A stretch of DNA of 64,000 nucleotides from Alphaproteobacteria bacterium. GTDB taxonomy: Bacteria > Pseudomonadota > Alphaproteobacteria > UBA828. The notes below the pieces were generated by a model. The model was not told the DNA's origin and made no database searches. It saw only the letters and a list, made by a program, of their open reading frames with translations. Below are positions 37,383 through 41,092 of this stretch, piece after piece; positions within the stretch are counted from its first letter, which is position 1, and the number at the start of each line of letters is the position of its first letter. The stretch spans positions 128,001 to 192,000 of the forward strand of contig CBDCRW010000004.1 in assembly GCA_965221125.1 (NCBI GenBank). Direction: 5' to 3'. The position numbers were made by a program, and so were the translations under genes.

Positions 37383-38402
37383 ATGACGGAGCCAACTCTC
37401 GGTACCCGCGACGCGCGCGGCAACTGGCGTCCGCCCTACATCATCGAGAAGCCGATCTTCATGTCGTGGCCGCTCAAGCCGGTCGCGGTCCTCAAGTTCT
37501 TCTTCGGGTGGCCCGGCTATCTCTGGCCGTGGAATGCCCTCTTCTTCGCGTTTCCGCTGGTGGCGTGGCTTTACATGACGCCGCCTCTCGCCGACATGCA
37601 GACGTTCGAGGCGTGGTGGATCGCCGTCGTCTTCGCCCGCAACCTGGGGTTCACGGTGCTCCTCTTCGGTGCCTGGCACCTGTGGTTCTACGTCTTCAAG
37701 GCCCAGGGCACGCACACCAAGTACACGCTTCGCCCGTTCGCCCGGAACAGCAGGGTCTTTGCCTTCAACAACCAGCTTGCGGACAACATCTTCTGGTGCC
37801 TGGCGAGCGGCGTGCCGATCTGGACGGCCTACGAGGTCGTTACGCTGTGGGCCTTCGCCAACGGCTACGTGCCGTTCGTCGAGCTGCGCACGGACCCGGT
37901 GTGGTTCGTCGTCTTCATGCTGCTGATCCCGCTGATCCGGGAATTCCACTTCTACGCCGTGCACCGCCTGCTGCACTGGCGGCCGCTCTACGAGCTCGCT
38001 CACAAGGTGCATCACCGCAACGTCAACGTCGGCCCCTGGGCCGGCATGTCGATGCACCCGGTGGAGCACGTGCTCTACTTCTCGGGCGCGCTGTTGCACT
38101 GGGTCGTTCCCTCGCACCCGCTGCACATGATGTTTCACCTGCACCACGCCGCGCTCTCGGCGCCCCAGGGCCACCATGGCTTCGAGAGCTTCGGCGTCGA
38201 AGGCAGGGCGGTGTCCTTCGGCGGCTACGGACACTACCTCCACCACAGGTACTTCGAGTGCAACTACGGCGGCGGCGACGGCCTGCTGATCTGGGACGTC
38301 CTGTTCGGCACGTGGCACGACGGCTCCGACGAGGCCCACGAGCGCATGAAGCGGCGCCTGGCCAAGCGTCGCTGGGCGGAGAAAGCGGCGGGCGCCGCGT
38401 AG
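37383..38402 (+). CDS. Sterol desaturase / fatty-acid hydroxylase family protein
   Basis: HFYAVHRLLH, HKVHH, SMHPVEH, HYLHHRYFECNYG, DVLFGT. Confidence 0.88.
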   Translation: MTEPTLGTRDARGNWRPPYIIEKPIFMSWPLKPVAVLKFFFGWPGYLWPWNALFFAFPLVAWLYMTPPLADMQTFEAWWIAVVFARNLGFTVLLFGAWHLWFYVFKAQGTHTKYTLRPFARNSRVFAFNNQLADNIFWCLASGVPIWTAYEVVTLWAFANGYVPFVELRTDPVWFVVFMLLIPLIREFHFYAVHRLLHWRPLYELAHKVHHRNVNVGPWAGMSMHPVEHVLYFSGALLHWVVPSHPLHMMFHLHHAALSAPQGHHGFESFGVEGRAVSFGGYGHYLHHRYFECNYGGGDGLLIWDVLFGTWHDGSDEAHERMKRRLAKRRWAEKAAGAA

Positions 38403-38491
38403 TCTGTTGATGGAATGGACGCCCCCTCCTGACGGCATCGCAATGTGCCAAGGTGGTGTTGTGTTTCAACCCCCTGAAGGAGGAGGCATCC

Positions 38492-39514
38492 ATGGAAGAG
38501 GTTAGCATCATCGGGATCGATCTGGCGAAGCGCAGCTTTCAGCTTCACGGTGTTCGGGCAGACGGGTCGGTTGCATTCCGCAAGAAGCTGAGCCGGGAGA
38601 AGCTTGAGAGCTTTCTGGCCTCTCGGCCGCGTTGTGAAGTGGCGATGGAGGCTTGCGCGAGTGCACACCACTGGGGCCGGGCGTTCCATGAGCTTGGCCA
38701 CGACGTGAGGTTGATCCCGCCGATCTACGTCAAGCCGTATGTGAAGCGGCAGAAGAACGACGCGGCGGACGCGGAGGCGATCTGCGAAGCCGCGCAGCGG
38801 CCGAGCATGCGCTTGGTGGCGGTGAAGACGCAGGATCAGCAGGCCCGGGCGATGTTGTTCCGCACGCGCGATCTTCTGGTGCGTCAGCGGACGCAGACGA
38901 TCAACGCGCTGAGGGGCCACCTGGCGGAGTTCGGCGTGATCGCGCCCAAGGGACCGGCTCATGTCGGTCGGCTGGCTGTGGCGCTGGAAGCCCCGGGTTG
39001 CGACTTGCCGGAGCAGGTTCGGGAGTTGGCCGGCCTTCTCCTCGAGCAGATCGCCGTGCTCAGTGCGAAGATCGACAGCCTTGGGAAGGCGCTTCAGGCG
39101 AGCGCGCGCCAGGACGAAGAGGCGATGCGGCTCATGACGATCCCCGGGATCGGTCCGATCTGTGCGATGGCGCTCCAGGCCTTTGCACCGCCGATGGAGA
39201 GCTTCCGGCGCGGGCGCGATTTCTCCGCCTGGCTCGGCCTCGTGCCGCGCCAGCACACGACGGGCGGCAAGCCGAGGCTGGGCAAGATATCGAGGATGGG
39301 CCAGCGCGACCTCAGGCGCCTCCTGATCACGGGCGCCATGACGGTTGTCAGGCACGCGATTCGACGCGGCGAGACGGCTGACCCCTGGCTGGCCAGGATG
39401 CTGGCGCGCAAGCCGAGGATGCTGGTCGCGGTGGCCCTGGCCAACCGCATGGCGCGTATCGTGTGGGCGCTGGAGACGAGGAAGGAGACCTACCGGCTTC
39501 CCGTCGCCGCCTGA
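38492..39514 (+). CDS. IS110 DEDD recombinase/transposase
   Basis: GIDLAK, MEAC, KNDAADAEAI, IPGIG, GLVPRQHTTGG. RBS GGAGGAGG before the ATG. Confidence 0.95.
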   Translation: MEEVSIIGIDLAKRSFQLHGVRADGSVAFRKKLSREKLESFLASRPRCEVAMEACASAHHWGRAFHELGHDVRLIPPIYVKPYVKRQKNDAADAEAICEAAQRPSMRLVAVKTQDQQARAMLFRTRDLLVRQRTQTINALRGHLAEFGVIAPKGPAHVGRLAVALEAPGCDLPEQVRELAGLLLEQIAVLSAKIDSLGKALQASARQDEEAMRLMTIPGIGPICAMALQAFAPPMESFRRGRDFSAWLGLVPRQHTTGGKPRLGKISRMGQRDLRRLLITGAMTVVRHAIRRGETADPWLARMLARKPRMLVAVALANRMARIVWALETRKETYRLPVAA

Positions 39515-39770
39515 GAAGGCGAAGCGCGGAACGTCGTCGGGGATGCGGGCAGGACGGAGGACGGGCAAGGGCAAAACGGTCAACGAGACGGGATCGGGCA
39601 AACCAGCTTCCGAACAAAGAGCCTTCGAGCTCGCACTGTTGATATGGACCCGATCCGCGTATCTCCATGCGGGCCAGCGGCGCCAGAGTTACGCGCCGCA
39701 TCAACAGGCCGGATAGATGTAAGCACCTGACCGCATGCTCCAAGGCGTTCAAAGAACTGCTTGCATCAAC
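39515..39770 (+). ncRNA. Predicted bridge/seek RNA region of the IS110 element
   Basis: Stems GGATCGGG/CCCGATCC and GCGGCGC/GCGCCGC enclose segments matching the target and the element ends (see findings). Boundaries approximate. Confidence 0.75.
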
Positions 39771-39958
39771 GGGGGCGTCCATAGATGTTCGGCATGCGGG
39801 TTGCGCGCCGATCGGCGCGGTAACTCATTGATCTGGCTGGATTGTGGGGGATCAATATAGCGTGCTTAACGACACGCGTGTTCTTTCAGACCATTGACAT
39901 GCAACGAATTTGTCCGCTTGCGCGGCAGACCGTGTTGGTGGTGAGAAATACGGGCTAG

Positions 39959-41092
39959 CTAGATGTCCCGATACCTGACGGGGATGCGCTGGCCCGAGCC
40001 CCATGACTCGATCATGTGATCGACGACTTCCGCCACGCGGTAGCCGTCCCGGAAGGTCGCGGCGAGGGGGGAGACCTCGTGCCGGCCGATCACCGCGCCG
40101 ATGAAGTGGTGGACCTGGTGCACGAAGCACTCGACCCAGCCGATGGGGTGGCTGCCCTGCACGCCGCCGTCCCACCAGAAGTCGGCCAAGGGGTGCTCCG
40201 GCTTGATGACCTGGATGGTCCGAAAACCCTGGTCGCGGCCCTCGGCGATCTGCAGCTCGTTGAGCTTGCCGACCTGGTAGCGGAGCGAGCCGCCGCTGCA
40301 GTCCACCTCGATGCTGCCGAAGTGGCCGTAGCCGGCGGCGACGCGGGACGCCTGGATGGTGCCGACCATGCCGTTCTCGAAGGTGACGATGGAGGCGAAG
40401 GCGTCGTCGACCTCGACCCGGTGACCCTCGACCTCGGGCACGTTGACCCGGGCGATGGCCATGACCTCGTCGATCTCGCCGACGAGGTAGCGCGCCGTGT
40501 CGATGTGGTGCGAGCCGAGATCGCCGAAGGTGCCGGTGCCGGCCACCGCCTTGTCGAGACGCCAGGCCATGGGCAGGTCCGGCCGCAGGTAGTCGGACAT
40601 CAGGTAGCAGGAGCGGAAGTGGATGGGCTCGCCCAGCGTGCCGCCTCGGATCAGCTCGCGCATGTAGCGGATCGCCGGGATGAAGCGGTGGATGAACGCG
40701 GCCTGGTGGACGATCCCGGCGCCCTCGGCCGCGCGCCACATCTCGTAGGAGGCATCGGCGTCGTGGGCGAGCGGCTTCTCGCACAGCACCGGGATACCGC
40801 GCCGCGCCGCCTCCACCGTCGGCTCCCTATGGAGGTTGTTGGGCGCCGCGTTGACGAAGATGTCGATCCCGGCGCCGTCCAACATCGCCCGCCAGTCGTC
40901 GCCCGTCTCCTCGTAGCCGAAGCGGTCCTGCACCTCATCGCGGGTGGCCTCGTCGAGGTCGACGATCCGCTTCAGCCGGATCGCGACGGGGAGCCGGTTC
41001 TTGACCAGCTTCTGCATGGCGAACGAATAGGAATGGAACGAGCCGATGAAGCCTGCTCCCAAGGTTCCGACGACGAGTTCGCGATTGGACAT
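39959..41092 (-). CDS. Gfo/Idh/MocA family oxidoreductase
   Basis: GAGFIG, PNNLH, CEKPL, GDLGSHHID. Confidence 0.9.
   Translation of the reverse strand: MSNRELVVGTLGAGFIGSFHSYSFAMQKLVKNRLPVAIRLKRIVDLDEATRDEVQDRFGYEETGDDWRAMLDGAGIDIFVNAAPNNLHREPTVEAARRGIPVLCEKPLAHDADASYEMWRAAEGAGIVHQAAFIHRFIPAIRYMRELIRGGTLGEPIHFRSCYLMSDYLRPDLPMAWRLDKAVAGTGTFGDLGSHHIDTARYLVGEIDEVMAIARVNVPEVEGHRVEVDDAFASIVTFENGMVGTIQASRVAAGYGHFGSIEVDCSGGSLRYQVGKLNELQIAEGRDQGFRTIQVIKPEHPLADFWWDGGVQGSHPIGWVECFVHQVHHFIGAVIGRHEVSPLAATFRDGYRVAEVVDHMIESWGSGQRIPVRYRDI

Follow-up and report, generated by a model that had tools for sequence, protein, structure and literature searches.

Does the non-coding DNA behind an IS110-type transposase gene encode an RNA that reads both the target of the element and the ends of the element itself? 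The question is raised by a locus within a 64,000-nucleotide stretch of an alphaproteobacterial genome, which is referred to here as the window and to which all positions refer. An original prediction, made from the letters of the window, placed a bridge or seek RNA at this locus, with target guides in one loop, donor guides in a second loop, and a three-base TGT core. We consider it very probable that the element is an intact, recently active IS1111-type member of the IS110 family, and that about 155 nt (39578-39732) represent a bridge/seek RNA carrying both target and donor guides. The features are collected in Table 1.

Table 1. Features of the element, its putative guide RNA and its target site (window positions)
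Feature	Positions	Strand	Basis or remark
Left target flank, putatively read by the guide (CTGT in copy 1, TTGT in copy 2)	38404..38407	+	Flanks of both copies; guide tracking
Left core copy, TG	38408..38409	.	Empty sites; same dinucleotide at both junctions in relatives
Left end: ATGGA extension, then subterminal inverted repeat 38415-38426	38410..38426	+	Inverted repeat match
Transposase gene	38492..39514	+	340 aa; DEDD/RuvC-like N-terminal domain and Tnp C-terminal domain
Putative bridge/seek RNA core; closing stem GGUCA/UGACC (39578-82 with 39728-32) encloses target and donor arms	39578..39732	+	Consensus fold
Predicted target-binding arm: P1 39591-98 with 39649-56; CCA 39603-05 with UGG 39645-47; hairpin 39619-22 with 39629-32	39591..39656	+	Helices
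Right target guide CCGAACAA, predicted to pair with top strand T + TG + TTCGG	39610..39617	+	Covaries with right flank
Left target guide CTGTTG (RNA CUGUUG, 39636-41), then invariant AU	39636..39643	+	Covaries with left flank
Predicted donor arm: GGCC 39672-75 with GGCC 39707-10; GCGGC/GCCGC hairpin 39677-81 with 39695-99	39672..39710	+	Helices
Candidate right donor guide CAUCA, would pair with top-strand TG + ATG at left end	39699..39703	+	Conserved, not covarying
Left donor guide AUAGAUG, same sense as last 5 bases of right end plus core	39713..39719	+	Covaries with right end
Right subterminal inverted repeat (39771-39782) and terminal AGA	39771..39785	+	Inverted repeat, consensus fold
Right core copy, TG	39786..39787	.	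As for left core copy
Right target flank TTCGG (TTCGGC common to both copies)	39788..39792	+	Flanks of both copies

The insertion sequence, its copies and its core

When occupied junctions are overlaid on empty sites, the element extends from 38410 to 39785, plus one TG. The transposase matches the Pfam families PF01548 (DEDD_Tnp_IS110, 6.1e-18) and PF02371 (Transposase_20, 2.3e-22), and it scores 315.8 bits, against a cutoff of 140, with the NCBIfam model NF033542, 'IS110 family RNA-guided transposase'. The catalytic residues D10 (IGIDLAK), E53 (AMEAC), and D90 and D93 (NDAADA) are present, as is the S/T-G finger GLVPRQHTTG at residue 249, with TG at 257-258; these residues and the finger were placed by motif and by partial alignment to ISCro4, with no structure behind the placement. 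The protein is distant to solved proteins, with phmmer E values of 2.2e-11 (ISCro4, 9t56) and 2.3e-9 (IS621, 8wt6) in the C-terminal domain only, and it shares 41.2% identity, over 98% of its length, with transposases that carry the annotation IS4321 or IS5075.

The non-coding DNA comprises 271 nt downstream of the transposase gene (39515-39785) versus 82 nt upstream (38410-38491). A perfect 12-bp subterminal inverted repeat, 100% complementary, is formed by 38415-38426 and 39771-39782, and terminal extensions of 5 bases on the left and 3 bases on the right lie outside the repeats and inside the core copies. The left-end motif GATGGrrTGGACG is conserved in relatives. The IS110 family is recognized here by both protein domains, by the D/E/D/D residues and the finger, and by site-specific insertion with a 2-base core and no long target duplication. 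The IS1111 group has been described as having subterminal inverted repeats of 7-17 bp, short terminal extensions, a long non-coding region downstream, and a transposase of 330-350 aa with a GL-P----S/TG motif (PMC11187229; PMC11208160). This element shows the subterminal repeats, the downstream non-coding region, 340 aa with GL-P----TG, and full-length relatedness of its transposase to the group. The original prediction of an apparently intact IS110/IS1111 member with a structured RNA 3' of the transposase is supported by domains, layout and consensus fold. The element sits 5 bases past the TAG stop codon (38400-38402) of a gene of the fatty-acid hydroxylase family (PF04116).

The host genome (7 contigs, 4.58 Mb) contains a second full copy at another locus, 100% identical over 1384 bp, and because two identical copies occupy different loci, the element is considered recently active. 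In both full copies the left junction reads ...TGTTG|ATGG and the right junction ...ATAGATG|TTCGGC. Copies at unrelated sites had been named as grounds for rejecting the original prediction; copy 2 occupies the same motif, and the prediction holds on this point. Copy 2 adjoins the end of a ~90-nt repeat, dispersed and common in the genus; dozens of matches to the last 86 flank bases were obtained from 19 of 20 same-genus genomes.

The target motif coincides with the tip of this dispersed intergenic repeat, which is about 90-100 nt long with inverted ends TGTTGTTCGGC ... GCCGAACAACA (window 39788-39880), and which exists in dozens of copies per genome in the genus and in few copies in the host genome. 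Both copies of the element, as well as the two unoccupied 10-mers described below, sit at tips of the repeat. A contig from a sponge-metagenome run contains the right part of the element (39609-39793) with no differences and runs on into the flank of copy 2; therefore, the same insertion exists in that data set.

The host genome also holds a 5'-truncated relative, L003 (G000:C2:60016-61101), at 81% identity with the whole downstream region kept. L003 is without about the first 295 bp, hence without the first catalytic residues, and has a complete RNA region with guides different from those of the element. The 5' guide of L003, GGGGTCA, fits the right flank of that locus, TGACCCC, and on sequence grounds L003 may possibly be an orphan guide RNA.

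The position and length of the core determine how target and circle junction are to be read. The original prediction proposed the same system with TGT as a core of 3 bases, in which the empty site would read ...GTC+TGT+TCGGCA and the circle junction ...CATAGA+TGT+TGATGG, and TGT, even TGTT, does stand at both junctions of both copies. We regard that version as very improbable, since every unoccupied site found reads TGTTGTTCGG, which is 3 bases longer. These sites are an IS-free orthologue of the copy 2 locus (L095), five further copies of the repeat in other genomes, and two sites in the host genome (L102 and L103). L095, with a flank 93% identical, reads ...ATTGT TG TTCGGCGTC... in the orientation of the element and refutes the TGT core for copy 2; the five repeat copies end in TGTTGTTCGGCGTC as L095 does. 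The 10-mer TGTTGTTCGG is unoccupied twice in the host genome, which is the chance level for a 10-mer (backwards control, 3 and 2); L102 and L103 both lie at tips of the same repeat family, and the sequence that follows in L103 agrees at 34 of 36 bases with the right flank of copy 1, the copy in the window. Additionally, relatives carry the same YG dinucleotide (CG or TG) at both junctions in 59 of 68 loci, and the four bases preceding GATGG do not recur at their right junctions. Because occupied junctions overlaid on the TGTTGTTCGG empty sites share TG only, the core is read as the dinucleotide TG, and the target, as it stands in the sequence, is (C)TGT + TG + TTCGG. The empty site of the original prediction is off in register by 3 bases. 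Its circle junction, derived from the TGT core, falls with that core, and the predicted junction should instead read ...ATAGA + one TG + ATGGAATGG (starting ATGG...).

For copy 1, the gene upstream is conserved in four same-genus genomes at 90-95% identity. An empty site was sought at these four orthologous loci and was not found, the intergenic DNA past the stop codon being unrelated or too diverged; one of the orthologous loci (L088) has an intermediate spacing that cannot decide the junction register. Part of the 64-kb stretch is present in 20 of 23 listed public runs, and among the contigs of the four runs examined, all short pieces, none skips the element or joins its ends.

The fold of the downstream RNA

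A scan of one genome per species yielded 250 encoded relatives, and the best 80 of these 250, at 71-83% protein identity, were used. Together with three host loci (L001-L003), they comprise 42 element types by loop-1 sequence, with 62 different junctions on the right and 60 on the left. The RNA scaffold is nearly constant among the relatives, and the two stretches of loop 1 vary by element type. Parsing by regular expression missed or mis-set features in some loci, including the right end of L077. Loci with rearranged or unalignable non-coding regions (L013, L017, L029, L045, L050, L055, L066, L075 and L079) were excluded from the fold alignments, as was the duplicate L002, and L052 was additionally excluded from alignment A2.

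The consensus fold was computed with RNAalifold from 38 distinct relatives, in an alignment that was not fitted to structure. It contains 39 pairs, with 98% of cells paired and 9 of the 39 pairs changed on both sides. None of 500 shuffles reaches the observed values, and slid partners are only 27-45% paired; these control figures are not probabilities, because the aligned sequences are kin. The target arm shows GC to AU swaps at two pairs in 14 of the 38 sequences, and in the donor arm one pair changes from GC to AU in 5 sequences. Across about 40 distinct relatives, compensatory changes maintain the stems of the scaffold. The fold fits the plus strand only, because its frequent G-U pairs would become A-C if the opposite strand were transcribed. 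The helix P1 is the stem GGATCGGG/CCCGATCC of the original prediction, and two further outer helices extend into the right inverted repeat. Of the donor guides, the left one falls in a junction strand and the right one in an internal loop, and the variable stretches occupy precisely those loop strands that separate covarying helices.

An alternative outer stem, CAUGCGG/CCGCAUG (39666-72 with 39731-37), pairs in 62.8% of cells in 40 relatives, with two middle pairs mostly broken, and was dropped in favor of GGUCA/UGACC because of this poor pairing. The single-sequence fold of 39515-39790 is only mildly more stable than shuffles (z -2.53). No match was found among the 4227 models of Rfam 15 for window 38000-40200 with E up to 1. 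A search for sigma-70-like promoters in 38350-39900 found none, and no promoter-like hexamer pair, at 4 of 6 bases per hexamer, was found across the circle junction built in silico. One RNA library, available as contigs only, contains mostly relatives at 90-95% identity and says nothing for or against transcription of the element.

Target guides and donor guides

The strings on which the original prediction was built are all in place: the stem at 39591-39598 and 39649-39656, CCGAACA at 39610-39616 and CTGTT at 39636-39640, and in the donor region CATCAACA at 39699-39706 and ATAGATGT at 39713-39720, with their partners at 38405-38412 and 39781-39788. Such matches could in principle have arisen by chance in a conserved 3' untranslated region that guides nothing and acts, for instance, as a terminator or in the control of translation. 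When the non-coding region was dinucleotide-shuffled 1000 times, the best-match lengths of the four were attained singly by 66, 510, 153 and 141 shuffles, each being unremarkable by itself, and all four together by 1 of 1000; the fourth observed length belongs to the 7-mer TATGGAC (39643-39649), which is not the match of the original prediction. Thus, within this one window, the four guide matches are only modestly beyond chance. Because single-window matches are weak evidence, the support for the guides stems from the relatives, where the association between guide and flank is reached in 0 of 5000 permutations, twice, and where the variable stretches keep to the loop strands of a covarying scaffold. 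With this evidence we consider chance similarity to be practically negligible as an explanation.

The 7-mer TATGGAC lies at the 3' edge of the target loop, and its reverse complement, GTCCATA, is part of the right inverted repeat; ATGGAC is also found in the left end of the element. The likeness may be chance, because TGGAyC belongs to the conserved scaffold.

The covariation of loop 1 with targets across homologs, proposed as a check on the original prediction, is seen for both strands. The 5' stretch of loop 1 is the reverse complement of the core plus the right flank, with a mean longest match of 6.34 to its own junction and 3.26 to those of others. Taking one locus per guide (35 guides), the mean longest match between right guide and right flank is 6.26 versus 3.34 +/- 0.17 when permuted (0 of 5000). 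The match is of 4 bases or fewer in 9 of the 35 guides; one of the nine (L077) is a parsing error, and among the remaining poor matches several become paired when G-U is accepted, and some are true misfits. The left target guide has the same sense as the left flank plus core, so it would pair with the bottom strand, and the invariant AU that follows matches the first two bases of the left end. Over 31 guides, 5.03 of 7 flank bases are identical versus 1.99 +/- 0.22 permuted (again 0 of 5000), the agreement being high only at the 5 flank bases beside the core and at background beyond. In this element the left flank agreement is short, with 4 bases in copy 1 and 3 bases in copy 2. The claim that loop 1 reads the target with inferable specificity is supported by the 35 and 31 guides. 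The string CTGTT, described as running across the core, is indeed identical to the target, and its meaning changes: it represents the left flank CTGT plus the first core base.

Within the loop, CCGAACAA, complementary to the top strand, stands 5' of CTGTTG, which has the sequence of the top strand itself. Left guides are assigned here to the bottom strand, and right guides to the top strand, after the model of IS621 (PMC11208160). In the IS1111 seekRNAs described in PMC11187229, the top-strand match likewise precedes the bottom-strand match and the two overlap at the insertion point, with the order reversed in the IS110 type.

A multi-copy relative in one complete MAG chromosome (L006, L008, L012-L016, L018-L020, L022 and L023) speaks in part against the preferred reading. 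Its left target guide is fit by 12 of 12 left flanks (3 to 5 of 5 bases), and its right guide is in register with only 3 of 10 readable right flanks, one more fitting when shifted by one base. These insertions resemble the 'half-match' insertion described for IS621 in a preprint (10.64898/2026.08.31.748434). L018 and L022 have their left flank in common and not their right, which suggests a rearrangement between copies. In addition, near L024, L025 and L083, unoccupied target-like sites GGCGTCCAAATT + TG + (A)CCCCCC are found ~40 nt past the right end; they adjoin occupied ones in a REP-like palindromic repeat, and they fit the guides and YG core of that element.

The second region was predicted to read the element's two termini, and this is supported for one of its two stretches. 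A donor stretch with the consensus GGAyAnAyG follows the GGCC helix and repeats the last bases of the right end. Its 5-mer occurs as ATAGA, ACAGA, ACACA, ACATA or ATACA, and in 71 of 73 loci the variant present agrees with the right end of the same element; all 7 bases of the left donor guide, core included, agree in 62 of 73, and most others differ in the last core base. The reading of AUAGAUG as a left donor guide for the right end and core is supported by this sequence tracking. On the other side, CAUCr before the GGCC helix is complementary to yGATG at the left end, an end which is invariant. Perfect complementarity of the right stretch to yGATG is limited to 7 of 34 element types, and in 14 of 34 CAUCA faces CGATG, with an A-C clash at the first core base. 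Because only the left stretch covaries, the left donor guide is supported, and a right donor guide CAUCA that would read the left end is plausible only. Element anatomy, the TG core, three guide stretches that covary with DNA, and the scaffold helices are matters of direct observation.

The details of the predicted donor matches require some correction. From the 8-nt match of CATCAACA with TGTTGATG, the pairing of CAUCA with TG+ATG can be retained, and the remaining AACA cannot, as it is conserved despite unrelated targets. The eighth base of ATAGATGT is flank and lies outside the element. Furthermore, the reading of loop 2 as a simple internal loop is not supported; the two stretches lie on the 3' sides of two different helices of the three-way junction.

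The extra bases beside the donor stretches were also considered as handshake guides, a role described for IS621 (PMC11208158). The ACA(G) following CAUCA matches the left flank of this element; however, AACAGG is conserved despite differing left flanks (L036, L077, L041, L044, L032 and L052, with L038 fitting by its own TGT). It is not read as a guide, because it is present in relatives with unrelated flanks, and a handshake role of AACA in this one element is possible by analogy, though unsupported by relatives. Similarly, U39720 matches the first flank base, and relatives have A there whatever their flank.

The donor guides bear on a further explanation, in which the RNA is a seek RNA only: loop 1 would guide the target, the transposase protein would recognize the ends via the 12-bp subterminal repeats, and AUAGAUG and CAUCA would be DNA-level copies of the ends (an internal transposase binding site) or scaffold. 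For ISEc11, an 82-nt seekRNA with the target matches alone was reported to be enough for movement, and the authors propose that end recognition may differ in IS1111 (PMC11187229). CAUCA does not covary, and the same-sense identity of AUAGAUG with the right end is equally expected of a repeated protein-binding DNA site. We nevertheless judge this explanation unlikely, as the five 5-mer variants track their own right ends and AUAGAUG is single-stranded within a conserved three-way junction. The donor layout also mirrors the target loop, with the top-strand reader 5' and the bottom-strand reader 3', both with the core, and donor-binding bases in the multi-loop have been reported for IS1111 bridge RNAs (PMC11208160).

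With a bispecific RNA as the preferred reading, the system would operate through a three-way-junction RNA. The internal loop of one arm would carry the two target guides, specifying (C)TGT+TG+TTCGG, and the other arm and the junction strand would carry the donor guides, holding the ...ATAGA+TG+ATGG... junction of the circularized element. Strand exchange by the DEDD transposase would follow at the TG core. The action of the RNA, its binding by the transposase, the formation of a circle and the order of strand exchange are what we infer from published work on IS621 and ISEc11.

Relation to known systems and meaning for the family

There is a close likeness to the IS1111 seekRNAs of ISEc11, ISPa11, ISKpn4 and ISPst6 (Siddiquee et al. 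2024, PMC11187229), a likeness that rests on layout and description and not on RNA sequence comparison. The downstream region, the subterminal repeats and GL-P----TG are shared. Both have two short target matches in one stem-loop, with the same strand order and the same overlap at the core, and in both, natural retargeting takes place by replacement of loop bases on a constant stem. Unlike the IS1111 seekRNAs as described there, the present RNA has donor stretches, the left of them backed by covariation, and a three-way-junction fold of ~155 nt; similarly long folds of IS1111 members may already be in print.

The bridge RNA of IS621 (Durrant et al. 2024, PMC11208160; Hiraizumi et al. 2024, PMC11208158) is bispecific and has four guides, each with the 2-base core, as the RNA here would have. 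In both systems the left guides address the bottom strand and the right guides the top strand, and the recombinase combines a DEDD and a Tnp domain. The differences, on the descriptions in the same two reports, are several. The IS621 RNA lies in the left end, upstream of the gene, whereas here it lies downstream. The order of guides within each loop is reversed with respect to IS621, and the core is TG or CG here and in relatives versus CT in IS621. The donor guides here are 9 nt apart (39704-39712, GGCC strand included) on the 3' sides of two helices, whereas those of IS621 face each other across one internal loop.

IS4321 and IS5075 (IS1111 family), which have the 41.2% identical transposase, resemble the element in that both insert at the terminal repeat of another repeated element. 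They target the inverted repeats of Tn21-type transposons, and target and host range differ; the comparison covers the transposases. ISPpu9 and ISPpu10 (IS110, Pseudomonas putida), with targets in REP or conserved intergenic repeats, share with this element a target in a dispersed intergenic repeat. They have orphan or extra copies of the small-RNA gene, beside which the 5'-truncated relative here has an intact RNA region. They represent a different subgroup with a different RNA and are set beside the element by description only.

In kind, the element is ordinary: it is a known kind of system with little that is new, and downstream guide RNAs with target and donor matches have already been reported for IS1111 elements. 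Its practical use is that the element is intact, is present in two identical copies and has a defined target of 10-11 bp, and the corrected TG core matters for primers or reprogrammed guides that would be designed from the original reconstruction. Tentatively, and with some doubt, the clade might serve as a natural 'specificity atlas' of an IS1111-type bridge recombinase, with an RNA built unlike that of IS621 (a three-way junction, donor guides 9 nt apart on different helices). At least one multi-copy relative keeps the left half-site and often not the right, which would be a natural 'half-match' recombination of the kind so far described for IS621 in the 2026 preprint (10.64898/2026.08.31.748434). 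On a single scaffold the family presents at least 35 guides that have been retargeted in nature, together with five variants of the donor guide. It could yield pairing rules, including guide lengths, core and the mismatches that are tolerated, for the IS1111 type, on which less work has been done than on IS621.
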